Shown in pieces: positions 5,014 to 57,987 of a stretch of DNA of 64,000 bases (positions are counted from its first letter, which is position 1; every line of letters starts with the position of its first letter). The stretch is taken from NCBI RefSeq assembly GCF_046119375.1, contig NW_027362771.1, positions 404,736,001-404,800,000 on the forward strand, in the 5' to 3' direction. The translations under genes were made by a program, and so were the position numbers. The notes under the pieces are model-generated. The model saw only the letters and a program-made list of their open reading frames with translations. It ran no database searches and was not told the origin of the DNA. Origin of the DNA: Phyllobates terribilis (taxonomy: Eukaryota).

Positions 5014-6634
5014 CAGTTATATGAAAAAGTTTGGGCACCCCTATTAATCTTAAGCTTAATGTTTTATAAAAATTGGTGTTTTTGCAACAGCTATTTCAAT
5101 TTGATATATGTAATAACTGTTGGACACAGTAATGTTTCTGCCTTGAAATGAGGTTTATTGTACTAACAGAAAATGTGCAATCTGCATTCAAACAAACTTT
5201 GACAGGTGCATAAGTATGGGCACCCTTATCATTTTCTTGTTTTAAATACTCCTACCTACTTTTTACTGACTTACTAAAGCATTTTTTTTGTTTTGTAACC
5301 TCATTGAGCTTTGAACTTCATAGCCAGGTGTATGCAATCATGAGAAAAGCTACTTAAAGTGGCCACTTGCAAGTTGTTCTCCTGTTTGAATCTCCTCTGA
5401 AGAGTGGCATCATGGGCTCCTCAAAACAACTGTCAAATGATCTGAAAACAAAGATTATTCAACATAGTTGTTCAGGGGAAGGATACAAAAAGCTGTCTCA
5501 GAGATTTAACCTGTCAGTTTCCACTGTGAGGAACATAGTATGGAAATGGAAGAACACAGGGACAGTTCTTGTTAAGGCCAGAAGTGGCAGACCAAGAAAA
5601 ACATCAGAAAGGCAGAGAAGAAGAATGGTGAGATCAGTCAAGGACAATCCTCAGACCACCTCCAGAGAGCTGCAGCATCAACTTGCTGCAGATGGTGTCA
5701 CTGTGCATCGGTCAACTATACAACGCACTTTGCACAAGGAGAAGCTGTATGGGAGAGTGATGCGAATGAAGCCGTTTCTGCAAGCATGCCACAAACAGAG
5801 TCGGCTGAGGTATGCAAAAGCACATTTGTCCTGTGGACTGATGAAACCAAGATTGAGTTGTTTGGTCATACAAAAAGGCGTTATGCATGGCAGCAAAAAA
5901 ACACAGCATTCCAAGAAAAACACTTGCTACCCACAGTAAAATTTGGTGGAGGTTCCATCATGCTTTGGGGCTGTGTGGCCAATGCCGGCACCGGGAATCT
6001 TGTTAAAGTTGAGGGATGCATGGATTCCACTCAGTATCAGCAGATTCTTGACAATAATGTTCAAGAATCAGTGACAAAGTTGAAGTTACGCAGAGGATGG
6101 ATCTTTCAGCAAAACAATGATCCAAAACACCGCTCCAAATCTACTCAGGCATTCATGCAGAGGAACAATTACAATGTTCTGGAATGGCCATCCCAGTCCC
6201 CAGACCTGAATATCATTGAACATCTGTGGGATCATTTGAAGAGGGCTGTCCATTCTCGGCGACCATCAAACTTAACTGAACTGGAATTGTTTTGTAAAGA
6301 GTAATGGTCAAAAGTACCTTCATCCAGGATCCAGGAAATCATTAAAAGCTACAGGAAGTGACTAGAGGCTGTTATTTTTGCAAAAGAAAGATCTACTAAA
6401 TATCAATGTCACTTTTCTGGTGAGGTGCCCATACTTATGCATCTGTCAAATTTTGTTTGAATGCTGATTGCACATTTTCTGTTAGTGCAATAAACCTCAT
6501 TTCAAGGCAGAAACATTACTGTGTCCAACAGTTATTACATATATCAAACTGAAATAGCTGTTGCAAAAACACCAATTTTTATAAAACATTAAGCTTAAGA
6601 TTAATAGGGGTGCCCAAACTTTTTCATATAACTG
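5014..6634 (+). mobile_element. Tc1/mariner DD34E element, copy 1
   Basis: TA flanks at 5012-5013 and 6635-6636. About 210-bp TIRs starting CAGTTATATGAAAAAGTTTGGGCACCCC, with an inner repeat GGGCACC. 1621 bp. Confidence 0.97.
5412..6406 (+). pseudogene. Tc1 transposase pseudogene
   Basis: MGSSKQLSNDL...GRPRK...[10 protein letters not shown]...QQNNDPKH...[12 protein letters not shown]. Carries a 28-bp frameshifting deletion, a D-to-N change at the second catalytic residue, premature stops and a lost stop codon. Confidence 0.95.
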
Positions 6635-6704: not shown

Positions 6705-8331
6705 CAGTTATATGAAAAATTTTGGGCACCCCTATTAATCTTAGGCTTATTGTTTTATAAAAATTTGTGTTTCTGCAACAGCTATTTCAGTTTGATATAT
6801 GTAATAACTGTTGGACACAGTAATGTTTCTGCCTTGAAATGTGGTTTATTGTACTAACAGAAAATGTGCAATCTGCATTCAAACAAAATTTGACATGTGC
6901 ATAAGTATGGGCACCTCACCAGAAAAGTGACATTAATATTTAGTAGATCCTCCTTTTGCAAAAATAACAGCCTCTAGTCGCTTCCTGTAGCTTTTAATGA
7001 GTTCCTGGATCCTGGATGAAGGTATTTTTGACCATTCCTCTTTACAAAACAATTCCAGTTCAGTTAAGTTTGATGGTCGCCGAGCATGGACAGCCCTCTT
7101 CAAATGATCCCACAAATGTTCAATGATATTCAAGTCTGGGGACTGGGATGGCCATTCCAGAACATTGTAATTGTTCCTCTGCATGAATGCCTGAGTAGAT
7201 TTGGAGCGGTGTTTTGGATCATTGTCTTGCTGAAAGATCCATCCCCTGTGTAACTTCAACTTTATCACTGATTCTTGAACATTATTATCAAGAATCTGCT
7301 GATACTGAGTGGAATCCATGCGTCCCTCAACTTTAACCAGATTCCCGGTGCCGGCATTGGCCACACAGCCCCAAAGCATGATGGAACCTCCACCAAATTT
7401 TACTGTGGGTAGCAAGTGTTTTTCTTGGAATGCTGTGTTTTTTTGCCGCCATGCATAACGCCTTTTTGTATGACCAAACAACTCAATCTTGGTTTTATCA
7501 GTCCACAGGACCTTCTTCCAAAAAGAAATTGGCTTCTCCAAATGTGCTTTTGCATACCTCAGCCGTGATTGCAGAAACGGCTTCTTTCGCATCACTCTCC
7601 CATACAGCTTCTCCTTGTGCAAAGTGCGTTGTATAGTTCACAGTGACACCATCTGCAGTAAGTTGATGCTGCAGCTCTCTGGAGGTGGTCTGAGGATTGT
7701 CGTTGACTGATCTCACCATTCTTCTTCTCTGCCTTTCTGATGTTTTTCTTGGCCTGCCACTTCTGGCCTTAACAAGAACTGTCCCTGTGTTCTTCCATTT
7801 CCTTACTATGTTCCTCACAGTGGAAACTGACAGGTTAAATCTCTGAGACAGCTTTTTGTATCCTTCCCCTGAACAACTATGTTGAATAATCTTTGTTTTC
7901 AGATCATTTGACAGTTGTTTTGAGGAGCCCATGATGCCACTCTTCAGAGGAGATTCAAACAGGAGAACAACTTGCAAGTGGCCACTTTAAGTAGCTTTTC
8001 TCATGATTGCATACACCTGGCTATGAAGTTCAAAGCTCAATGAGGTTACAAAACCAAAAAAAGTGCTTTTGTAAGTCAGTAAAAAGTAGGTAGGAGTATT
8101 TAAAACAAGAAAATGATAAGGGTGCCCATACTTATGCACCTGTCAAATTTTGTTTGAATGCAGATTGCACATTTTCTGTTAGTACAATAAACCTCATTTC
8201 AAGGCAGAAACATTACTGTGTCCAACAGTTATTTCATATATCAAACTGAAATAGCTGTTGCAAAAACACCAATTTTTATAAAACATTAAGCTTAATATTA
8301 ATAGGGGTGCCCAAACTTTTTCATATAACTG
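6705..8331 (-). mobile_element. Tc1/mariner DD34E element, copy 2 (inverted relative to copy 1)
   Basis: Same TIRs, TA flanks at 6703-6704 and 8332-8333. 1627 bp. Confidence 0.97.
6933..7932 (-). pseudogene. Tc1 transposase pseudogene with an intact catalytic domain
   Basis: ORFs 7498..7977 and 6933..7622. An 8-bp frameshifting deletion and a 15-bp in-frame deletion. D (WTD), D (QQDND) and E (NIIE), with 34 residues between the second D and the E. Confidence 0.95.
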
Positions 8332-8646: not shown

Positions 8647-8883
8647 TGGAAAAGTGAAAAGAGCGACACTTCCACAGGTAAAATAAAAGCACTATTATAT
8701 TACTTTATACCATAAAACCTGACATACAAAGATAAAAAATGGACGCGTTTCTGGTGTCTTAGACGCCCTTAATCATAGCATAGTTCTCAGTTTTTTATCT
8801 TTGTATGTCGGCTTTTATGGTATAAACAAATAAAATAGTGCTTTTATTTTATTTGTGGAAGTGCCGCTCTTTTCACTTTTCCA
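8647..8883. repeat. Fold-back hairpin: 93-bp arms, 51-bp loop containing a hammerhead-like motif
   Basis: 8647-8739 (TGGAAAAGTGAAAAGAGC...GATAAAAAA) is an imperfect reverse complement of 8791-8883. Confidence 0.9.
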
Positions 8884-8976
8884 TTGTTGTTGAGCCACAC
8901 CAGCTAGAGTTATGGCACCCACCGGTTTTCCTCCCATGGATTTCCAACTCACAAAATGCGGTAAGCTCTGATTCCT

Positions 8977-9660
8977 TTCTCTAAGATCCCAGGTACGTTC
9001 AGCTGTATCACATCTAACGTAGTGTACTTAATTATATGTACCAAATGTCCAGCTGGGGGTCTTTATGTAGGGGAGACAGGGCAAAAACTTAGGACAAGGA
9101 TGAATCATCATCACCGCACAATAAAAGAAAAAAGAATAGATCTACCTGTAGTCAAGCATTTTTGTTCCCCTGATCACAGCATAAAAGACATGAAATTACT
9201 GATATTAAAAGGTAACTTCAAAAGTCAGAGAGAAAGGAAAGTGTCAGAATATAAACTGATGGTGACCTTTAACACTTTCAGAGCAGGAATGAATGTGTCG
9301 CATGGATTTATGTCATTCTATATCAACTAAGAATTGTGCCCCTCAGACTTATGAGGCCATCATAACACTGGACCTAGTCATAGGACAATAAAACCTTCAC
9401 ACTCCTTATCTATTAACTGCTAAAATATTTATAGCCAGAACTATTTATCTCTTCCATAATAACTCTGCTTTCCATCACCTGTCTTACCTATTGCATTATT
9501 TTTGTGTCTTATTGTGTATAAATATGTCACTTTTCAGATTTTGTGGTATACTATGCCTGATGAAGAGACCTGAGTAGTCTCGAAAGCTTGCAATTTGTTA
9601 CCATCTTTTCGGTTAGCCATTAAAAGGTATTAACCACTGAGGACTCTCAAATCTAAATAT
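8977..9660 (+). mobile_element. 5'-truncated Penelope-like element: GIY-YIG endonuclease plus 3' pseudo-LTR tail
   Basis: ORF 9022..9330 VYLIICTKCPAGGLYVGETGQKLRTRMNHH...KHF...H...GMN matches the PLE GIY-YIG domain. A hammerhead motif lies in the tail. Boundaries approximate. Confidence 0.88.
9543..9604 (+). ncRNA. Minimal type I hammerhead ribozyme (Penelope-associated)
   Basis: CTGATGA (9557-9563), extra A, stem II GAGAC/GTCTC, GAAA (9582-9585), palindromic stem III AAGCTT, predicted cleavage after CUU (9589). Stem I from TGC/GCA and GTGGTA/TACCAT. Confidence 0.8.
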
Positions 9661-17469: not shown

Positions 17470-17820
17470 ACCGCAGTGATATACGTGTGATGGAAAACCA
17501 CAGTGTTAATTAGCTGGCCTGTAGGTAACTATTATTAACAGCGACCTCGTGTCAATAACTTTGCTGACACACTGCAACAAAATCTCAATGGAGCTCAGAA
17601 ATGACAGAATTTTCAGCGCACTTATATGTGATCCGTGTGACGGACAAACCACAATTTTAAATAGCTGGCCTGTGGGTAACTATTTTTAACAGCGACCTTG
17701 TGTCAATAACTTCGCTGACACACTGCAACAAAATCTCAATGGAGGCCAGAAATGACAGAATTTTCAGCGCACTTATATGTGATCCGTGTCACGGACAAAC
17801 CACAGTTTTAAATAGATAGA
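17470..17820 (-). repeat. 151-bp tandem repeat in the hAT copy 2 5' arm
   Basis: CACTTATATGTGATCCGTG recurs at about 17619 and 17770, with a partial third unit. Confidence 0.85.
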
Positions 17821-21559: not shown

Positions 21560-24500
21560 TGTTATGATCTGCTACAGAGACTAAGGAAAGACAGGAGATC
21601 TGTCCCTACAATAGAACTAAACTAGATCCCTACGATGTAACGGGGAACCTGATCCTGCGATCAGACCCGCTAAAGTCCTCGGCTAGTCTGTACGAAGACC
21701 TATAGATGTGAGGGAGGAATCCCTACAAGAACTAGGGACTGGGAAAAGTTGGACACCTCCTAGCAGAAATCGTAGCAGTCAAAGACAAACACACAACAAA
21801 AAGTAAAGAGGTCAGAAGACCTAGCAAAACTAACAGAGAACGGCAACAGAGCACCAAGCTAGCTCAACAGTAGTAAATACAAATGAAGTCCAGCAATGCC
21901 AGGAGGGCGGAGCCGGATTAAATAGGCAAAACTGGTCATGTGACCAGCAAACTAAAAAAAACCTAACAGGAGAGTTGTAACAGTACCACCTCTTCTAAGA
22001 GGATCCTCCGGATCCCCTAGGCCCAGGCTTACCAGGAAACCTCCTGTGAAATGCTCGGACAAGTCTGGAAGCAGAAACATCATCCGCCCTCACCCATGAG
22101 TTATCCTCAGGTCCGAAACCCTTCCAAGCGACGAGATACTGCAAACTCCCTCTATACCGTCTAGAATTTAGGATGCGGGAAATTTCATATTCCCCGTCCT
22201 CCACCACCGGAGGAACAGTGGCAGAGGCGTCACCATCCGACACATCAGCTTTTTTCAACAGAGAAACATGAAACACCGGATTAATCCTCCAGGACGTAGG
22301 AACCTCCAGCCTAACAGCAGATTGGTTAACTATCTGAAGCACCTTAAAGGGCCCTACGAACTTGGGACCCAATTTTTTAGAAGGAATCCTCAATCGCAGA
22401 TTCTTAGAGGACAACCAAACCATGTCACCAACAGCAAACAAAACCTCTTGCCGTTTCCTATCAAAGTACCTCTTAGATTTTTTGTTAGCCTCCTGAAGAT
22501 TACCACGCACATCCGTCCAAACTCTCTCCAAATCACCGGAAAAACTCTCCTCCTCAGGCACAGCCGAAACCAATTTGGAGAATGACCCAAAAGACGGATG
22601 TCTCCCAGAACAACAAAAAAAAGGCGAACACCCAGCAGAAGAGGATGTATGGTTGTTAAGAGCAAATTCAGCAAGTGGCAGAAACTCAGATCACCCCTCT
22701 TGATTGTCTGCCACAAAACAACGCAAGAACTGCTCAACATCCTGGTTCTTCCTTTCTGTCTGGCCATTAGACTCAGGATGATATCCGGATGAAAACGACA
22801 AATGGACTCCCAACCTGTCACAAAAGGCACGCCAAAAACGAGCCACGAACTGAGGTCCCCTATCAGAAACAATGTCAGTAGGAGCACCATGTAGTCTGAC
22901 AATCTCCTTGACAAAGGCCTTAGCGAGTGTCTTAGCGCAAGGCAGTTTGATAAAGGGAACCAAGTGACACATCTTGCTAAAACGGTCCACGACCACCCAG
23001 ATGACCGTGAAACCTTCAGAGGGAGGAAGGTCAGTAATAAAGTCCATAGCCAGATGTGTCCAAGGTGCACTAGGAACCTCCAGAGGGCAAAGCAACCCTG
23101 CAGCAGGAGCATGCGAAGACTTGGATCTAGCACACACAGTACATTGGCGCACCCACTTAATGACTTCCTTCTGCCATCCAGGCCACCAAAAACTGCGACC
23201 CACAAGTCTCTTGGTCTCAGAAATTCCAGGATGACCTGCCAACCGAGACTCATGACACTCAACAAACAAATCTCTCCTAAAGGTCCTAGGCACAAACAAC
23301 CTCCCATGGGGAGTGTTAGATGGGGCATTCTCCTGTGCTTTAAGAATCTCATCCTCCAAAACGGAGTCCAAAGCAGCAATCACAACACCTTCTTGTAAAA
23401 TGGTCTCCTCTTCCTCCTCAACACCGACCATGGGAGAAAAGCTGCGAGACAAAGCATCCGCTTTAACATTCTTGGTACCCGGGATGTAAGTAACGGAAAA
23501 ATTAAACCGCGAGAAAAAAAGTGCCCACCTAGACTGACGGGCATTCAAGCGCTTGGCAGCATCAAGATAGATCAGATTTTTATGATCAGTGAAAACCTGA
23601 ATGGGAAAATCAGCACCTTCCAAGAGGTGACGCCAGTGTTCAAATGCGAGTTTAATCGCCAGCAATTCCCGATTACCAATATCGTAATTAAGTTCAGTCT
23701 CGGAAAATTTTTTAGAAAAAAAGGTACAGGGATGTACTCCATCCTTGTCCTGAGACAACACCGCACCAACCCCCACCGAAGAAGCATCAACCTCAACCAA
23801 AAACGGCTTAGTCACATCAGGCTGCATAAGGATGGGAGCAGAGGTGAACCTCTCCTTTAAAAACACAAAAGCTTCAATGGCCTCAGAAGTCCACTGAACC
23901 GCATTAGCACCTTTCCTGGTGAGATCGGTCAGCGGTTTGACAATAATAGAACATTTTTTTATGAATTTTCTGTAATAATTGGCGAAACCAAAAAACCTCT
24001 GTATCGATTTCAAACCAATAGGCCTAGGCCATTCCTGTACAGCCTGAACCTTCACCGGGTCCATCTCAAAACCTTCACTGGAGATAATGTAGCCCAAAAA
24101 ACTAATTCTCTGTACAGCGAACTCACATTTCTCCAGCTTAGCAAAAAGCGAATTGTCCATTAATAACTGTAATACCTCACGTACGCTCCGCCAATGAGAC
24201 TCCAGATCAGGCGAATAAATCAAAATGTCATCCAAATACACAACCACATTTTTGCCGATTAAAGGTCTAAGGATATCATTAATAAGATTCTGAAAAAATG
24301 CTGGAGCATTGGTGAGACCAAAAGGCATAATCAAATTCTCAAAATGACCCACAGGAGTGTTAAAAGCAGTCTTCCATTCATCACCCTCCTTCATGCGCAA
24401 CAAATTGTTTGCCCCCCGGAGATCAATTTTAGAGAACCACTTGGCCCCCACTAACTGGTTAAATAAATCAGGAATCAATGGCAGTGGGTAAGGATTGCGT

Positions 24501-26548
24501 ACAGTAATTTTATTAATCTCACGAAAGTCCAGACAAGGACGTAAACCGCCATCTTTTTTTTTTACAAAAAAAAATCCAACAGCCACAGGAGACTTGGAAG
24601 GCCTAATGTGACCAGTGGCCAAGCTTGTCTGTATGTATTCCTCCAAAGCCTTTCTCTCAGGAATAGTAAGATTAAATAAACGACTCTTAGGAAGAGTCGC
24701 TCCAGGGACAAATTCAATGGTACAATCATAGTCTCTATGGGGAGGCAAAACCTGCGACTCCTCCTCAGAAAAAACTCTCCAAAAATCCTGAATAGGTACA
24801 GGCAATTCCCCTCTATCCACAGCAGCAATGCGCCCGTTTCAACACTTGTCATAACACTTAGGGCTCCAGGACTTAATTTCATTGGTAGACCAATCCAGTA
24901 CAGGATTGTGCAATTTTAACCAGGGTAACCCCAATATTACTGGAGAAGGCAAATTATCCAATACCACCAAATCCATATTCTCTTGATGAATACCATTAAT
25001 AGTGAGGGGAAATTCACAGACCTTGTGAGTAACACTCTTCAAGGGAGAGCCATCGACAGAAACCACAGCAATAGGGGATGACAAAGTTTTAGGTTCTAAT
25101 CTAAGTTTTTCCAAGAATCCCCCATCAATCACATTCAGAGTAGATCCACAATCCACAAATACCCGAAATTCAATTAATTCATCCTGAGCAGCAGTAGTGG
25201 CAGATAGGAATACTCCCTTAGAATTTAAACAGGCAATACGGGCATGACTGACCATTTTTTTTTCTTTCTTCATACGAAGCACACAGCTCTTAATCAAATG
25301 ACCAGAATTTCCACAATAGAAACACAAGCCTTCAGAAAGTCGGCGGTCTTTTTCCTGAGAGCGGGGTGTCATCGCCCCAATTTCCATCGGCTCACCATTG
25401 TCAGCACTGAACCTCTCAGGACTCGAAGCTGACATAGCAGAGGATTTGCTCTCATTAACCCTTGCACGCAGTCTCCTGTCCACCCGTATAGCTAATTGCA
25501 TTGCCTCCTGCAAGTTTCCAGGTGTGGGATAAGCAATCAGTAAATCCTTAACCCTTTCACTTAGCCCTGCAAGAAACAAGCTTTTCAAAGCTGAATCATT
25601 CCACCCCACCTGGGCAGACCACCGACGGAAGTGAGAACAATATTTTTCCACATTACCTGATCCCTGCCTCAAACGTCTTAATTCAGACTCAGCAGATGAG
25701 ACACGATCAGGATCATCGTACAATAAACCCAAAGCAGAAAAAAAACTATCCACTGATCTAAAGCACGGATCACTAGGTTGGAGAGAGAAGGCCCATCCCT
25801 GAGGATCTTTGCGCAAAAGTGACATTATGAACCCTATGCGCTGTGATTCATCACCAGAGGATCAGGGTCTCAAACGAAAATATAATAGACAAGAATTTTT
25901 AAAAGAAAAAAAATCTTGTTGTTCGCCAAAAAATAGATCAGGCAGACGTACCTTTGGTTCCACAAAATGCGCTCCAGAACAGCTACTCACGTGTTGTTGG
26001 AGCTTGGCCACCTCCAGAGAGAGTCCCTGCAAGCGTTGAGCCAAATCTTGCACCGAGACCATGATGGAAAACTGGAGGTCTTTCCTTAGAGAAAAATTTT
26101 TTTTTTTTTTTTTTTATGGCTGGACTTACTGTTATGATCTGCTACAGAGACTAAGGAAAGACAGGAGATCTGTCCCTACAATAGAACTAAACTAGATCCC
26201 TACGATGTAACGGGGAACCTGATCCTGCGATCAGACCCACTAAAGTCCTCAGCTAGTCTGTACGAAGACCTATAGATGTGAGGGAGGAATCCCTACAAGA
26301 ACTAGGAACTGGGAAAAGTTGGACACCTCCTAGCAGAAATCGTAGCAAAGACAAACACACAACAAAAAGTAAAGAGGTCAGAAGACCTAGCAAAACTAAC
26401 AGAGAACGGCAACAGAGCACCAAGCTAGCTCAACAGTAGTAAATACAAATGAAGTCCAGCAATGCCAGGAGGGCGGAGCCGGATTAAATAGGCAAAACTG
26501 GTCATGTGACCAGCAAACTAAAAAAAACCTAACAGGAGAGTTGTAACA
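21560..26548 (-). mobile_element. Full-length Ty3/Gypsy chromovirus (Tf1/sushi group), young insertion
   Basis: LTRs 26130-26548 (5', 419 bp) and 21560-21982 (3', 423 bp) differ by 3 substitutions and a 4-bp indel. 5-bp TSD TGAAC. PPT AGAAGAGGTGGTAC at 21983-21996. Confidence 0.98.
21995..26062 (-). pseudogene. Single-frame Gag-PR-RT-RH-IN-chromodomain polyprotein with three in-frame TGA stops
   Basis: ORFs 25862..26062, 24839..25825, 22691..24820 and 21995..22573 are all in one frame. Motifs: CCHC knuckle CFYCGNSGHLIKSC, protease VFVDCGS, RT YLDD, integrase HHCC and DDE (MDFITDL / SDRGPQF / GQTERKN), chromodomain YEISRIL...YLVAWKGFGPEDNSW. Confidence 0.96.
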
Positions 26549-32390: not shown

Positions 32391-35300
32391 GCTCTTCCAG
32401 GGGGCATTAAAACCATCTTGTTAGGCTACTGCGACCTACACCATTTCTCCAAGGGGCATTAAAACCATCTTGTTAAGCTACTGCAACCTCAACCACTTTT
32501 CCCAGGGGCATTAAAGCCGTCTTGTTAAGCTACTGCGACCTCCACCATTCTTCCAAGGGGCATTAAAACCATCTTATTAAGCGACTGCTACCTCCACCAC
32601 TTTTCCCAGGGGCATTAAAACCGTCTTGTTAAGCTACTGCGACCTCCACCACATTTTCAATGGGAATTGATATTGTCTTTTTATTCCACTGCGACCTCCA
32701 CCTCTCTTCCAAGGAGCATTAAAACCGTCTTGTTAAGCTACTGCGACCTCCACCACTTCTCCAAGGGGCATTAAAACCATCTTGTTAAGCTACTGCGACC
32801 TCCACCACTTTTCCCAGGGGCATTGATATTGAATTTTTATTCCACTGCGACCTCCACGTCTCTACCAATGGGGCATTAAAACCGTCTTGCTAAGCTACTG
32901 CGACCTCCACCACTTCTCCAAGGGGCATTAAAACCGTCTTGTTAAGCTACTGCGACCTCCACCACTTCTCCAAGGGGCATTAAAACTGTCTTGCTAAGCT
33001 ACTGCGACCTCCACCACTTCTCGAAGGGGCATTAAAACCATCTTGTTAAGCTACTACAACCTCCACCATTCTTCCAAGGGGCATTAAAACCATCTTGTTA
33101 AGCTACTGCAACCTCCACCACTTTCCCCAGGGGCATTAAAAGCATTTTGTTAAGCTACTGCGACCTCCACCACTTCTCAAAGGGGCATTAAAACCATCTT
33201 GTTAAGCTACTGCGACCTACACCACTCTTCCCAGGGGCATATATACTGTCTTTTTATTCCACTGCGACCTCCACGTCTCTTCCAAGGAGCATTAAAACCG
33301 TCTTGTTAAGCTACTGTGACCTCCACCACTTCTCCAAGGGGCATTAAAACCATCTTGCTAAGCTTCTGCGACCTCCACCACTTCTCCAAGGGGCATTAAA
33401 ACCATCTTGTTAAGCTACTGCGACCTCCACCATTCTTCCAAGGGGCATAAAGACCGTCTTGTTAAGCTACTGCGACATTCATCACTCTTCCAAGGGGCAT
33501 TAAAACCGTCTTGTTAAGATACTGTGACCTCCACCACTTCTCCAAGGGGCATTAAAACCGTCTTGTTAAACTACTGCGACCTCCACCATTCTTCCAAGGG
33601 GCATGAAAACCGTCTTGTTAAGCTTCTGCAACCTCCACCACTTTTCCCAGGGGCATTAAAACCGTCTTGTTAAGCTACTGCGACCTCCAGCACATTTTCA
33701 AGGGGCATTGATGTTGTCTATTTATTCCACTGCGACCTCCACGGCTCTTCCAAGGGGACTTAAAACCATCTTGATAAGCTACTGCGACCTCCACCACTTC
33801 TCGAAGGGGCATTAAAACCATCTTGTTAAGCTACTGCGACCTCCACCACTTCTCGAAGGGGCATTAAAACCATCTTGTTAAGCTACTGCGACCTCCACCA
33901 TTCTTCCAAGTGGCATTAAAACCGTCTTGTTAAGCTGCTTTGACCTCCACCACTCTTCCAAGTGGCATTAAAACCGTCTTTTTAAGCTACTGTGACCTCC
34001 ACTGCTCTTCAAGGGGCATTAAAACTGTCTTGTTAAGCTACTGCAAACTCCACCATTCTTCCCAGGGGCATTGAAACCGTCTTGTTAAGCCACTGCGACC
34101 TCCACCATTCTTCCAAGGGGAATTAAAACCGTCTTTTTAAGATACTGCGACCTTCACCGCTATTCCAAGGGGCATTAAAACTGTCTTGTTAAGCTACTGC
34201 GACCTCCAACATTCTTCCAAGGTGCATTAAAACCATCTTGTTAAGCTACTGCAACCTCCACCACTTCTCCAAGGGTCATTAAAACCGTCTTGTTAAGCTA
34301 CTGCGACTTCCAACACTTCTCCTAGGGGCATTAAAACCATCTTGTTAAGATACTGCAACCTCCAGTATTCTTCCAAGGGGCATTAAAACCGTCTTTTTAA
34401 GCTACTGCAAGCTCCACCACTTTTCCCAGGGGCATTAAAACCGTCTTGTTAAGCTACTGCGACCTCCACCACATTTTCAATGGTAATTGATATTGTTTTT
34501 TTATTCCACTGTGACCTCCTCGTCTCCTCCAAGGGGCATTTAAACCGTCTTTTTAAGCTACTGCGACCTCCACCGCTCTTCCAAGGGGCATTAAAACCAT
34601 CTTGTTAAACTACTGCGACCTCCAACATTCTTCCAGGGGGCATTAAAACCATCTTGTTAAGCTACTGCGACCTCCACCATTCTTCCAAGCGGCACTAAAA
34701 CCATCTTTTTAAGCTACTGTGACCTCCACCACTCATCCAAGGGGCATTAAAACCGTCTTGTTAAGCTACTGCGACCTCCACCGCTCTTCCAATGGGCATT
34801 AAAACCGTCTTGTTAAGCTACTGCGACCTCCACCACTTTTCCCAGGCGCATTAAAACCATCTTGTTAAGCTACTGTCATCTCCACCATATTTTCAAGGTG
34901 CATTGATATTGTCTTTTTAATCCACTCTGACCTTCACGTCTCTTCCAAGGGGCATTTAAACCATCTTGTTAAGCTACTGCGACCTCCAACATTCTTTCAA
35001 GGGGCATTAAAACCGTCTTTTTAAGCTACTGTGACCTCCACCACTCTTCCAAGGGGCATTAAAACCGTCTTGTTAAGCTCTGCGACCTCCACCGCTCTTC
35101 CAAGGGGCATAAAAACCATCTTGTTAAGCTACTGCGACCTCCACCACTTTTCCCAGGGGCATTAAAATCATCTTTTTAAGCTACTGCGAACTCCACCACA
35201 TTTTCAAGGGGCATTGATATTGTCTTTTTATTCCACTGTGACCTCCACGACTCTTCCAAGAGGCATTTAAACCATCTTTTTAAGCTACTGCGACCTCCAC

Positions 35301-36151
35301 CGCTCTTCCAAGGTGCATTAAAACCGTCTTGTTAAGCTACTGCGACCTCCACCATTCTTCCAAGGGGCATTAAAACAGTCTTGTGAAGCTACTGCGACCT
35401 CCACCATTCTTCCAAGGGGCATTTAAACCATCTTTTTAAGCTACTGTGACCTCCACCACTTTTCCAAGGGGCATTAAAACCGTCTTGTTAAGCTACTGCG
35501 ACCTCCACCGCTCTCCCAAGGGGCATTAAAACCGTCTTGTTAAGCTACTGCGGCCTCGACCACTTTTCCCAGAGGCATTAAAACCATCTTGCTATGCTAC
35601 TGCGACCTCCACCACTTCTCGAAGGGGCATTAAAACCATCTTGTTAAGCTACTGCGACCTCCACCATTCTTCCAAGGTTCATGAAAACCGTCTTTTTAAG
35701 CTACTGCGACCTCCACCGCTCTTCCAAGGGGCATTCAAACCGTCTTGTTAAGCTACTGCGACCTCCACCATTCTTCCAAGGGGCATTAAAACAGTCTTGT
35801 TAAGCTACTGCGACCTCCACCACTTCTCCAAGGAGCATTAAAACCATTTTGTTAAGATACTGCGACCTCCACCACTCTTCCAAGGGGCATTAAAACCGAC
35901 TTGTTAAGCTACTGCGACTTCCATCACCTTACCCCGGGGCATTAAAACTGTTTTGTTTACCTAATGCGACCTCCACCACTTCTCCAAGGGGCATTAAAAC
36001 TGTCTTGTTAAGCTACTGTGACCTCCACGTCTCTTCCAAGGGGCACTTAAACCATCTTTTTAATCTACTGCGACCTCCACCGCTCATCCAAGGGGCATTA
36101 AAACCATCTTGTTAAGCTACTGCGACCTCCACCACTCTTCCAAAGGGCATT
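32391..36151 (+). repeat. 52-bp satellite array, about 72 units
   Basis: Consensus AAGGGGCATTAAAACCGTCTTGTTAAGCTACTGCGACCTCCACCACTTCTCC. 52-bp period confirmed at 32401 and 32453. Confidence 0.98.
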
Positions 36152-38365: not shown

Positions 38366-41300
38366 GCCCAGCTTGTGCTTCTGAAGACACGCCCAAAGTA
38401 ATTTAAGCGGGCTCACATCGCTACAGTATTGACAAATGTTGACTCTAAATGTGGTTTAGACACATTGTGTGGCTTAGAAGTAGAGGGATATTTGGATTTG
38501 GGAGCACAGAATTTGCTGGATTTCTTTTGAGTGGACTAGTTTGCTGTTCCAGAGCCTTTGTGCTACCAGTAATGTGGAAACCCTTTATATTTCAAATGAC
38601 AGATTATGAACCTGAGTGGGGATTTGTTTTTTTGTGGAAGTTTTTATTGTAAACATTTTACAGAACATTTTTGCATCGCATTTATCCTGTGTTCTAGACT
38701 GAGCACTTACATCTGTGTTTCCATCTAAATTTCCAAATAACGTCATTCAGATGAAATTCCTGATGGATCCATTTCACTATAATGAGGCAACAGCGTTACT
38801 CTGGACTCCATCTGGTCTTTTTTCAGCAGTGTCCTTTTCAGAGGTTCACAAAACTGTGGCTAACTCCGCTTTTGTACATGCCAGATCATGAGCCAGACAT
38901 AGTCTAAAGTGACTCGATCTGCCTCATTATAGGGAATCTTTTTTCAGAGGTTCCATGTGAATCACATATTTCAGAATTTTACATGGAAACTTCAGTTTTA
39001 GCGCGTACTGATGTCACAGGTTTGTCAGATGTGATAGACAGTCTCTGTGCAGTTGGTTGCAGAAGATCTCTTCTTTTGACATTACAGACACCTTCTTAGC
39101 TGTTTCACTCTAGGGCACATCCGCTACCTCCTTCCTGCTCTAATTGACACCCTGGCCTGGGGGGTTAAATAGTTTCACTTTGCAGCAGGAAGGTGCCGGT
39201 GAAATTCACATGTTTCCTTGTGAAAGCTTGGAGCTTGTGCAGTTCTAACTTCCTCTCTGGTGCCAAGAGGATGTCTGCGCTTTCTCTCTGTAATCGTCTC
39301 AAGCTAAGTTACTTTCCCCTGTGTCTGTCTACCTTGTTGTCTTTACTTGTTAGTGGGGACTGACTAGTGCTCATCCCCCCTTCCCTATCCAAGGCCTTGC
39401 TCTAGGGAAATACAAGGTTTTAGGTTCCTGTGTGGCGATTGGTGAGCCTAGGAGGTCTCCACTCCCCCTTTCCTAGTGTCTGGGCTCCCTTCCCCTTATC
39501 CCTTCATGTTGAACTTAGTCTTTCCCACACCTGGCGTGACATTATCACCGGCCATGCACATTTAGAGAAAATAAGAAAAAAAAAACCTGACACTTGGGTT
39601 TAGTTGAGTGTTTTTTGTTTTTCGGCATGGTTTTCTTTTCCTTTCTCCTTCGTATGGATTCAGTTGCAGAGCAGCTGCGCAGTCTGTCTCTGGAGGTGAA
39701 TGACCTCGCTGTGAGGTTCAGTAACAGCATCAGGGGCTACAGGTCACTAATGTGGGGGTCCCTGCAGGTAGGCCTGTCCAGCCTGAATTCAAGGTTGCCC
39801 TCCCAGACAGGTTTTCAGGAGGTAGGGACAAGTTTTGTGTATTCAAGGAGGCCAGCAAATTGTATTTTAAACTTCATCCTTACTCCTCCGGACGTGAGGA
39901 GCAACGAGTAGAAATTGTGATCTCTCTACTGCAGGGAGATCCTCAATTCTGGGTATTTTCTTTATCCCAGGATTCAGTTTGTCTCCAGTCTGTAGAGGTT
40001 TTTTTTGGGGCTCTGGCCGTCATCTATGATGACCCTGACCTAGTCACCTTGGCTGAGTATGGGCTATGTCGCCTTCAGCAGGGAAATTGGTCAGTGGAGA
40101 CGTACAGTTCTGAATTCCGTAGATGGGCAATGGATACTAAATGGAAAGACTCAGCTCTTAGAAGCCAATTTTGTGAGGGTCCTACTGAAAGGTTGAAAGA
40201 TGCCTTGGCAGTATATGAAACTACTCAGTCCTTGGAGGCTTCCATGTCGTTGGCCATATGTCTTGATAGACGTCTTCAGGATAGACAGGTGAGACCACCT
40301 TCTACGGGGCCTTCTTGTCGACGTTATGTACCTCTGCCGGGGGAGCGGTCTGGTGGTGAGCCAGTACTGGGGGAGGTGGAGGAACCCATGCAGTTAGGGG
40401 GTGTCTTTACATCATACATTTCCCCAGAGATTCGCAAGAAAAAAGGCACATGTTTATTTTGTGGGAAAAAGGGACATTTTGTTGGGACCTGTCCATCAAT
40501 TCCTAAACAAAAGGAGACTAGATTAACTCTTGGTAGTCTGGAGTTGGATAAGCAAGGGGTGCATTTATCGCCAATCTGCAGTTCCCGGTTTGTTCTGATA
40601 GCAGAGGTGGTGCTAGAAACCTAAAACAAGAAAATTTCTGTGTTTGTTGACAGTGGAGGTGGAGTCAGCATGGTTGATGATAAGTTTGTGAAAACTCATG
40701 GTCTTGCTTGCTGTATTTTAGCTAAGCCTATTTCCATCTTCGCCATCGACTCGGGGCCACTTGTACAGAGACCATTTACTCAGATTGTACATAGTGTAAA
40801 ACTGAGGGTGGGGTCAGTTCATTGTGAAATAATTTCTTGCTATGTTCTGGACAATCTTCCCACACCGATTGTCTTGGGTATACCTTGGCTTGTTAAACAT
40901 AATCTGTGGTGGATTGGCAAACCAGGGAGATTATTGAATGGGGAGATTACTGCCATGAGAACTGTTTAGAAATTTCCCTTGCTACTGTCTCTATGGAAAT
41001 ATTACCTGCTTTTCTGTCTGGTTTTGAGGACGTTTTTTTCTGAGAGGGGTCATCAGGATTTACCTCCTCATCGTGCATATGACTGTCCTATTAACCTGAC
41101 CCCCGGAGCTAAACTACCGAAGTCCAGACTGTATATTCTTTCTGGCCCTGAGAGGCAAGCCATGAAGGATTTCATTGTGGAAAGTCTGGAGAAGGGACAC
41201 ATTAGGCCTTCATCTTCACTTGTGGCAGCAGAGTTCTTCTTTGTGAAGAAAAAAGATGGCGGTCTACATCCCTGTTTAAATTTCCAGGAATTAAATCAAA

Positions 41301-54856: not shown

Positions 54857-57800
54857 ATGGGCAAGGCACGTGGCAAGGGATGGGGAACTGGACGTGATGG
54901 TAATGGTGCATGCAGAGGTCGAGGACAAGGACGTGGTCAAGCCAAAATTGTGCCACAACAATCACCCACATCTTCTCGCCTGACCTTCCTGTCCCAATTT
55001 CTAGGGGACCACAGCACACCACTATTGAACCCAGAGCAGTGTCAAAAGGTTGTTGGTTGGATAGAGGATAATGCTTCCAGTCACTTAGCCACCACCACCC
55101 TGTCTTCCACACGGTCAAGTCTCAGTAGCCGTGAGTCTGGACCGCATATTCCTCACCCTGATCTTCCTTCCTCCCACCATGCCGAGTACCCAGAGACAAC
55201 AGATCCCACACTTGGACACTCTGAAGAGCTGTTCACTTTTCCATTTATAGATTCGGGCCTCTCACCCGGTCCACTTGAAGCGGGGCAAGAGGAGATCGCA
55301 TGTAGTGATGCCCAAATATTTGAGCAGCCACGGTCACACGAAGGCGACGGTGGGAAAGTGGCACAAGAGGTGGATGATGATGAGACACAGAGTCAGGAGG
55401 AGGACCAGGGTGCAGAAGTGGAATACGAGGTGGTGGATGATATAGTAACTGACCCAACCTGGCAGGAGGACATGCAGAGAGAGGACAGCAGCAAACACGG
55501 GGAGGGAGGCAGAGCACCCCAACAGGCAGAAGAAGCAGTGTGGTGGCCGCAGACAGAAGGCAGGCAACCGTTCCCCGTACCACCAACATGAAGGAAGTTG
55601 CCAGTACAACTGTTAGGTCTTCCCGAGTTTGGTTGTTTTTTAAAGACACTGTCGATAACCTCAAAAAGGCCCTTTGCAACACCTGCCAGGCCAGCATCAG
55701 CAGGGGTGGCAAAATGACCAGCCTGACCACCAACAGCATGATCAGGCACATGGCAGAAAAGCACCCGACTTTGTGGGCCGAACCCCAGGGTTCAAGAACA
55801 GTCCATACCCCAGTCGTTGGAACGCAAGCGCAAATATGCAGACAACACCCCACAGGCCACACTACTAAATTCTCACATTTCACGACTGCTTGCGCTCGAA
55901 ATGTTGCCTTTTAGGCTCATGGAGACGGAAGCATTCCGCAATCTGATGGCGGCGGCCGTCCCTCAGTACTCAGTCCCCAGCCGCTACTATTTCACCCGGT
56001 GTGCCATCCCCGCATTACACAAGCACGTGTCCCTAAACATTAGCGGTGCTCTTAACAACACAGTTACGGTAAAGTCCACCTAACCACGGACACGTGGACA
56101 AGGGCTTGTGGGCAGGGACTGTACATCTCGCTGACGGAACACTGGGTTAACATAGTGGAAGCCGGGACCCAGTCAGACTTTGGGACGGAACACGTCCTCT
56201 CGACGACAAGGATTACGGGCCCTAGGTCAATCAGGGTTGCCCTCACGGTCTACAGCTCCTGCACCTCATCCTCCTCAGCCTCCTCCTCCTCTTCAGCCTC
56301 CATCTCCGAAATGACCACATCAGTTACCAGCTGGAAGCACTGCAGCACTGCCTCGGCCAAGCGGCAACAGCCTGTGCTGAAGCTAATATGCTTAGGTGAA
56401 AAACCACTCAATGCTGAAGAGTTGTGGACAGCTCTGAAAGAGCAGACAGATTTGTGGCTCACACCGCTGAACCTACAGCCAGGCATGGTCGTGTGTGACA
56501 ATGGCCGGAACCTGGTGGCGGCTCTGAGGCGAGGCGAGCTCACACACGTGCTATGCCTGGCCCATCTGATTAACATCTTGGTTCAGCGGTTTCTCAAATC
56601 CTACCCGGAGCTCCTGGATCTGCTTGTTAAAGTATGCCGCCTGTGTGCCCATTTTAGAAAGTCAGCTACAGCTTCCGCCGCCCTTGCAGTGTTTCAGCAG
56701 CGTTTACAGCTTCCGGCTCACAGACTGGTGTGTGATGTCCCTACGTATTGGAACTCTACACTGCAGATGTTGGGAAGGATTTGTGAGCAGAACAGGGAAG
56801 TTGTTGAGTACCAGCATCAACAAAGCGGTCGGTATTCTGTTCAGACTCAACACATAAGACCTCAGGAGTGGATATGGTTGTCAGACATATGTACCATCCT
56901 GCTAAACTTTGAGGACTCCACCAAGATGGTGAGCGGCGATGACGCCATCATTAGCATCACCATCCCGCTTCTCTGTCTTCTGAAACGCTCTCTGCTCACA
57001 ATCAAAGAGGATGCATTGCAGGCGGAGCATGATGAGATGGAGAAAGGAACCATACAGGGTGATTACACACAGCCAAGCCTCATCTCTTCCCAACGTGGAT
57101 TGGGTGACAAAGAGGAAGAGGAGGAGGAGGAAAGACAGGAGCTAGTTTCATGCACTATAGACGGTACTACCTGCACAGCTGTCATACCGTCTGTTCAGTG
57201 TGGATGGTCAGAGGACAGAGAGGAGGAGGAGAGCATGGTCAGTCATCCTCTTGGTGAGGACACGGAAGTCTTGCCTATTAGTAGTCTGGCACGCATGGCC
57301 GAGTTTATGTTACGCTGCCTTTCCCATGACCCTCGCGTTCTCAAAATTTTGGGTGACAGTCATTACTGTTGGGTGACACTTCTAGACCGATGCTACATGG
57401 AGAACTTTGTATCTCTTATTCCTGAGGCGGACAGGTCTACAAAAATGGGGCTGTACCAGAAGGCCCTTGTTGCGGAACTATTAAAAAAATTCCCATCTGA
57501 AAACGCTGGCGGCAGAGGGAACACTTCGTTGGACAACCAAGGAGTACTGGAGAGAGAGACACAACTTCAATCCAGCAGAGGCAGGGGAACACTGTCAAAG
57601 TTCTGGGAGAGATTTCTTAGACCCTCCCATCGCACAGGCCCTGAGGCGCGGGGTACTCTCACAAGGAGTCCAAAGTTTGGGAAAGTGCTGAGGGAGTACC
57701 TTACCGACCGTACCAACATCCTCCCTGATTCCGCTGTGCCTTATAATTATTGGGTATCCAATCTGGATACGTGGAATGAACTGGCTCTCTATGCCTTGGA

Positions 57801-57987
57801 GGTCCTGGCCTGCCCTGCCGCCAGCATTTTATCAGAGCGGGTTTTTAGTGCCGCTGGTGGAATTATAACTGATAAGTGCATCTGCCTGTCAACTGAAAAT
57901 GCTGACAGGCTAACTCTTATGAAAATGAACAAGGGCTGGATTGGGCCAAACTTCTCAACACCACCGAATGATAGCAGCATTACATAA
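54857..57987 (+). pseudogene. hAT transposase pseudogene with an uninterrupted 610-codon C-terminal ORF (56155..57987)
   Basis: VVCDNGRNL, CLAH, TYWNST (R to Y), SILSERVFS and the dimerisation domain are present. The N-terminal half is frameshifted and has a deletion near 55800. Confidence 0.93.

Follow-up and report, generated by a model that had tools for sequence, protein, structure and literature searches.

A hairpin in the window (the whole stretch of DNA that was analysed, 64 kb of a 10.6-Gb genome) raises the question of what kind of element leaves two inverted arms around a hammerhead-like motif, and whether a hammerhead whose 3-8 pair is A-U could cut its own RNA. The original prediction was of a short, non-coding, ribozyme-bearing palindromic retroelement with long arms that could act as an extended stem I. 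The analysis reported here leads to a different reading, which we hold with good confidence, namely that of a twin-primed, head-to-head Penelope stub carrying a family-wide A3-U8 hammerhead that likely cuts the element RNA in vivo. The locus itself is an ordinary, decayed stub, and its value lies in being the entry to a large natural class of A3-U8 hammerheads.

The Hairpin and Its Parts

The arms of the hairpin (8647-8739 and 8791-8883) are present as predicted, with 93 nt each, 91% complementarity and a spacing of 51 nt, and the fold (z = -19.7) was matched in 0 of 200 shuffles. The predicted extent of 8647-8883 contains these arms but falls short of the full element, which spans 8647-8983 with a plus-strand arm at 8787-8983. 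An Rfam search of the hairpin gave no hammerhead model match; three miRNA-hairpin matches were below the gathering score and were set aside as hairpin look-alikes. Almost certainly, the hairpin consists of two 5'-truncated pseudo-LTR (pLTR) ends of a Neptune-type Penelope retrotransposon, joined head to head. On the scale used throughout, C17 is position 0, A3 is -34 and +1 is the first base past the predicted cut. The features are as follows.

8647..8784, minus strand: pseudo-LTR copy 1, starting at -42 (8 nt before A3), spanning the hammerhead and ending at the short 3' end, +95
8742..8776, minus strand: minimal type I hammerhead core, A3-U8 variant, with the predicted cut between 8742 and 8741
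8740..8741, minus strand: decayed 3' strand of stem I, CA in place of the family AG
8785..8786, no strand: two untemplated junction bases at the head-to-head join of copies 1 and 2
8787..8983, plus strand: pseudo-LTR copy 2, from the UC of the cleavage triplet (-1, the predicted cut) to the long 3' end at +195
8884..8983, plus strand: tail of about 100 nt, in a single arm only, delimited on the basis of the two 3'-end peaks described below

Copy 1 agrees with the family majority at 93.5% over 138 nt and copy 2 at 94.3% over 193 nt. Inside the tail, a candidate splice-donor-like hexamer, GGTAAG, lies at 8960-8965 (plus strand). Three families (those of the window tail, L082 and L099) have GGTAAG or GGTGAG about 20-35 nt short of the long 3' end, and this hexamer may act as the donor for an intron in the 5' leader.

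An A3-U8 Core as a Family Trait

The minus-strand motif reads position by position as originally described, including the palindromic CGCG and the GUC triplet: A3 is at 8776, U8 at 8771 and an extra A following A9 at 8769, followed by stem II (8768-8752), GAAA (8751-8748), CGCG (8747-8744) and UC (8743-8742). The A3-U8 swap, also part of the prediction, is genuine and characterizes the family, with A3 in 36 and U8 in 37 of the 40 arms that cover the core, so that the 3-8 Watson-Crick pair is present as A-U instead of the consensus C-G. The catalytic core positions U4, G5, A6, A9, G12, A13, A14, A15.1, U16.1 and H17 are each kept in 36-40 of the 40 arms and are all intact in the window copy.

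Two stem II mismatches had been taken as signs of decay. One of them, a G>A change at 8755, is such a loss, but the other, a purine-purine opposition at 10.1/11.1 that is G.A in the window copy, belongs to the family: position 11.1 is G in 21 arms, A in 18 and a gap in 1 of 40, never C, hence the mismatch is a family trait and the G10.1-C11.1 pair is replaced by G.G or G.A. The family stem I has 3 bp (GCU/AGU) next to the core, and its 3' strand is well kept (+1 is A in 33 and +2 is G in 36 of 40 arms). In the window copy this strand reads CA at 8740-8741, which leaves the copy unable to form the 3-bp stem I. Having lost a stem II pair (8755) as well as the 3' side of stem I (8741-8740), the copy is decayed, as had been suspected, and its own ribozyme is probably inactive. 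The family-majority RNA, folded as a monomer, did not cleanly yield the three-way hammerhead fold.

The Repeat Is the End of a Penelope-Like Element

The hairpin sequence belongs to a dispersed repeat (87 matches from the 40 of 188 candidates that were scored), and an exact anchor of its family matched 65 times genome-wide, with a control of 0, in line with the predicted multi-copy element and not with a single-copy hairpin. Most copies hold the motif and a single arm. Longer copies continue upstream into a TA-rich stretch and then a GIY-YIG endonuclease frame, which in one copy (L030) matches Pfam PF01541 above the cut-off (E 3.8e-7). A C-x4-C-x2-C linker precedes GIY-YIG in the L046 translation and in L135, and frameshifted RT-EN remnants occur in L140 and L143, those of L140 being joined to sequence 82% and 79% like the two arms of the window. 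The related A3-U8 element L135 has an intact 851-aa frame with RT and GIY-YIG, followed by the A3-U8 motif; its RVT_1 match is below that model's cut-off. RT and C-terminal GIY-YIG in one frame are thus seen for the family and are absent from the window copy.

Since GIY-YIG, the linker and RT all lie upstream in long copies, the repeat is the pseudo-LTR of a Neptune-type Penelope-like element (PLE). The Penelope-type minimal hammerhead of the original prediction is thereby supported, while the idea of a short non-coding palindromic retroelement is not supported, as the long copies run into coding sequence. The Neptune-type label would follow from the CX2-5CxxC linker (PMC8557442), and the trees reported below compare linker-EN pieces of this genome only. 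Two further candidates were rejected, namely a MITE or fold-back DNA transposon, because most loci are one-armed and junctions and arm lengths vary, and a non-LTR retrozyme, because opposite-strand pairs are head to head in 19 of 19 cases, not head to tail, and the family is tied to RT-EN.

Core Variants and Covariation Across the Genome

The genome was searched with the pattern N3-UGAN-N8-AAG...GAAACGCGU and, as controls, with its reversal; the pattern fixes AAG and CGCG, and the counts cover those variants only. The matches comprised 4463 A3/U8, 996 A3/other, 1240 other/U8 and 15268 other/other cores (0, 5, 7 and 22 in the controls, in the same order), so that A3-U8 accounts for 4,463 of 21,967 pattern motifs, about a fifth. 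The genome search, family consensus and covariation analysis proposed with the original prediction place A3-U8 in the consensus and show that positions 3 and 8 covary genome-wide, with an odds ratio of 55, although copies share ancestry and are not independent, so that this ratio and the counts overstate the number of events. Searches built on a C3-G8 core would miss roughly one in five motifs here, which means that such genomes contain more hammerheads than are counted.

By eye, the first 100 motifs of the other/other class were 81 C-G, 13 U-A and 6 mismatched. Many of the A/other matches resemble canonical cores aligned to the pattern with a three-base offset, and many other/U matches belong to one young G3-U8 family or to one local duplicate cluster. 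At G000:C1:438.8-440.7 Mb, about 20 identical C3/U8-mismatched motifs lie on one strand, tens of kb apart, and probably stem from one decayed copy carried within a large tandem duplication.

The first 30 A3-U8 loci carry many different stems II and 19 distinct stem I combinations, and across families both stems change in a compensatory manner. In the 19 combinations, 40 of 57 stem I pairs are Watson-Crick, compared with a shuffled mean of 19.8, a value reached in 0 of 20,000 shuffles. N17 is never G among them, and 10.1/11.1 is G-C in 10, G-U in 5 and G.A in 4. Replacement of G10.1-C11.1 by G.A was observed in several families (L092, L093, L104, L116, L120 and L135), with A3-U8 and C3-G8 cores alike. 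Across families, the A3-U8 motifs have a stem I of 3-7 bp and no stem III.

In a linker-EN tree of 14 rows, one or two per family (midpoint root, small sample), 4 C3-G8 rows split at 100/98 from 10 rows with A3-U8, U3-A8 or G3-U8 cores, a side that includes the family of the window; a second tree gave the same split at 99/99, with a long-branch warning. Among the non-C-G cores of this genome, A3-U8 recurs in many families and thousands of copies, and U3-A8 and G3-U8 occur as well. The G3-U8 family, here termed family D (L057, L065, L136, L289-L372; 230 anchor matches), is a young PLE with long open frames, whose hammerhead is G3-U8 in 64 of 67 cores and has a bulged A separating position 3 from a longer stem I. 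Small contigs (C51, C87, C152, C154, C175, C176, C239, C241 and others of G000) hold many near-identical copies of its endonuclease, arranged as inverted pairs with a spacing of about 4.3 kb, and these pairs are possibly part of a larger amplified unit.

5' Ends of Insertions and Likely Cutting In Vivo

In a young A3-U8 family, copies that begin at the predicted cut offer a direct and cheap test of in vivo cutting and of the copying of cut RNA. Three families were scored, two with A3-U8 and one with G3-U8 cores. For the family of the window, 81 arms at 62 loci were taken from all 65 exact anchor matches, after L168 (the same locus as L167), L200 (a look-alike of L199) and one short extra L173 match had been dropped. 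For family C, which is young and has A3-U8 in 49 of 50 cores, 98 arms came from the first 100 of 433 anchor matches, and for family D 98 of the first 100 of 230 matches were used, in both cases with windows fixed beforehand; the reference copy of family C and two of three tandem duplicates in family D were removed.

In the family of the window, 20 5' ends fall at -43..-33 (1.6 expected) and 10 at the cut site, -5..+6 (3.0 expected), the latter a weak peak; both windows were chosen after looking, and some of the cut-site ends lie in a run of T, within which the limits of an alignment are poorly fixed. Family C has 23 ends upstream of the motif (1.5 expected) and 15 at the predicted cut (2.5 expected), one of which, L287, is an internal deletion and not a 5' end. 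These ends are sharply placed, with 13 in -1..+3 (12 of them true), only 2 in +5..+14 and none in -20..-2, and target-site duplications in two solo copies set the start at +1. Family D has 9 ends upstream (1.5 expected) and 6 in the cut window (1.8 expected, P 0.011), but these are spread without a sharp edge, with 2 in -1..+3 and 7 in -20..-2. The contrast between families C and D (P 3e-4) is post hoc.

In family C the upstream peak is sharply bounded at an initiator-like A, which suggests that this peak marks the transcription start, an assignment that we regard as reasonably probable. In Drosophila Penelope, transcription from an internal promoter starts shortly before an intron (PMC2377424), and the end of that intron meets helix I. 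A cap-G signature (G in 7 of 8 arms of family C) was seen after the fact, and its repeat test was partly and weakly positive (G in 9 of 17, and in 6 of 13 new matches). Contigs of three runs, the RNA origin of which is only guessed, cover the family C pLTR, with ends and strand not readable.

From the placement of these genomic ends, which is indirect evidence, it seems fairly likely that the A3-U8 hammerhead cuts in vivo, probably via a dimer formed through the CGCG palindrome or with help from the element protein. The main competing explanation, which is unlikely, retains the Penelope stub and has A3-U8 as a non-cutting motif, kept as a folded or protein-bound signal, with the +1 peak produced by RT pausing or template switching. 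It gains from several observations: in pairwise mutagenesis at 3-8 of one type III hammerhead, no swap other than G-C was rescued (PMC9901934), an anole PLE could do without cutting in vitro (PMC11167929), minimal PLE hammerheads cut poorly in vitro, and family D, with its G3-U8 cores, has some excess of ends in the cut window too. However, a pause at stem I would be expected at its 3' foot, where family C has only the 2 ends in +5..+14 against 12 true ends in -1..+3; its lack of ends in -20..-2 speaks against this explanation as well, and a template switch at stem I would leave an inverted core upstream of the ends, where the letters do not show one. In addition, the catalytic positions and the NUH rule are conserved across families.

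The balance tips slightly towards a broader reading of the sequence evidence, in which a whole old Penelope lineage lives on non-C-G cores, the A3-U8 form would cut in vivo in spite of its short stem I and lack of a stem III, and the cut RNA would be a template for RT. Were this true, the 5' ends of insertions would serve as a fossil record of cleavage by which natural core variants could be ranked, with sharp ends for A3-U8 and blurred ends for G3-U8.

Probable Twin Priming and Head-to-Head Pairs

The 3' ends of the 81 arms form two peaks, with 44 short, 34 long and 3 other ends. Pairs on opposite strands are found at 19 of the 62 loci, all head to head, and 17 of the 19 combine one short with one long 3' end. 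Their junctions differ, none of the other 18 pairs sharing the window's pair of 5' ends, and at several junctions the arms overlap by 1-7 nt.

We infer that the element protein would nick both target strands and that two cDNAs would be primed at the two internal start sites, +95 and +195, each extending to the 5' end of its own RNA. For the minus arm, which begins at -42, this 5' end would be a transcript start just upstream of the ribozyme, and for the plus arm, which begins at -1, it would be the ribozyme cut; both cDNAs would finally be joined. Twin priming of this kind, on two nicked strands, is likely.

It is very improbable that the fold-back arose by snap-back of a single cDNA or by a later DNA-level inversion, to which the short overlaps of 1-7 nt might point: the 17 of 19 pairs with one short and one long 3' end are not expected from such events, the 5' end of each arm falls on RNA landmarks independently, and a self-copied cDNA would not reach past its own start into the tail. 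Equally remote is an independent palindromic retroelement or retrozyme with arms forming an extended stem I, which the very stable hairpin, the recurrence of inverted pairs (19 of 62 loci) and the possible folding of read-through RNA would fit, but which is largely refuted by the differing junctions, the single arm at most loci, the 5' arm being an inverted copy of the motif's own downstream sequence, the long copies extending into GIY-YIG and RT and, in the window copy, the mismatches at 8740-8741 and the unpaired junction bases that part arm from core.

Relation to Known Systems

The minimal type I hammerheads of PLEs (Cervera and De la Pena, 2014; PMC4209133) resemble the present motif in core layout, the extra nucleotide between 9 and 10.1, the palindromic helix III, the short helix I, the place in the pLTR and the occurrence of pairs on opposite strands. 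They differ in the 3-8 pair, reported there as C3-G8 and U3-A8, with A3-U8 absent from the alignment rows examined, and in G10.1-C11.1, described as highly conserved, in place of which the family of the window has G.R. Natural U3-A8 hammerheads (Perreault et al., 2011; PMC3088659) likewise show a compensatory 3-8 change in nature, and covarying 3-8 pairs were active in vitro, but their polarity is opposite, the family of the window having the purine at position 3. U3-A8 has been reported in nature (PMC4209133; PMC3088659), and an A3-U8 or C3A/G8U hammerhead was not found in the literature searched, which did not extend to the large PLE hammerhead set of Lunse et al. (2017), so that an earlier mention of A3-U8 in print is possible. 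One mutational scan gave low scores to a purine at this position, so that natural A3-U8 families test which context allows it. Any Watson-Crick pair was reportedly tolerated in two type III ribozymes studied by Przybilski and Hammann in 2007.

Neptune EN+ PLEs (Craig et al., 2021; PMC8557442) share with this family the RT, the CX2-5CxxC linker and C-terminal GIY-YIG, as well as 5' truncation, an adjacent inverted truncated copy and a tail at one end. The tail is about 100 nt in the family of the window and 30-40 in Neptune PLEs, and in the window, unlike the units described in that report, both halves are cut down to the pLTR, leaving a bare hairpin. The same source calls the role of Penelope hammerheads unclear. 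A further parallel is the Anolis Poseidon element PAc (Frangieh et al., 2024; PMC11167929), for which two internal RT starts that define the tail, extension on both strands and protein-assisted cutting have been shown, with the hammerhead likewise in the pLTR. That hammerhead is C3-G8, and in vitro uncut RNA was the dominant substrate, with no reads or RNA ends at the cut, whereas the young A3-U8 family C has genomic 5' ends at its predicted cut. Animal non-LTR retrozymes (bioRxiv 10.64898/2026.07.22.740005) are similarly short, non-coding, hammerhead-bearing and PLE-related, but form head-to-tail tandem units, and the window holds a head-to-head stub of a coding element.

Neighbors in the Window

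Beside the hairpin lie unrelated remnants of Tc1-type transposases (5576-6304, plus strand; 6933-7986, minus strand) with the Pfam domains DDE_3 and HTH_SB. Further along, Ty3/gypsy-type gag and pol frames (22691-25861, minus strand), a second gag piece (39725-40624, plus strand) and a hAT transposase frame (56056-57987, plus strand) were found. The window also contains a tandem array of a 52-bp unit at 32395-36151 (about 72 copies, 83% matches) and arrays of 150-151 bp at 17484, 27714 and 54165.
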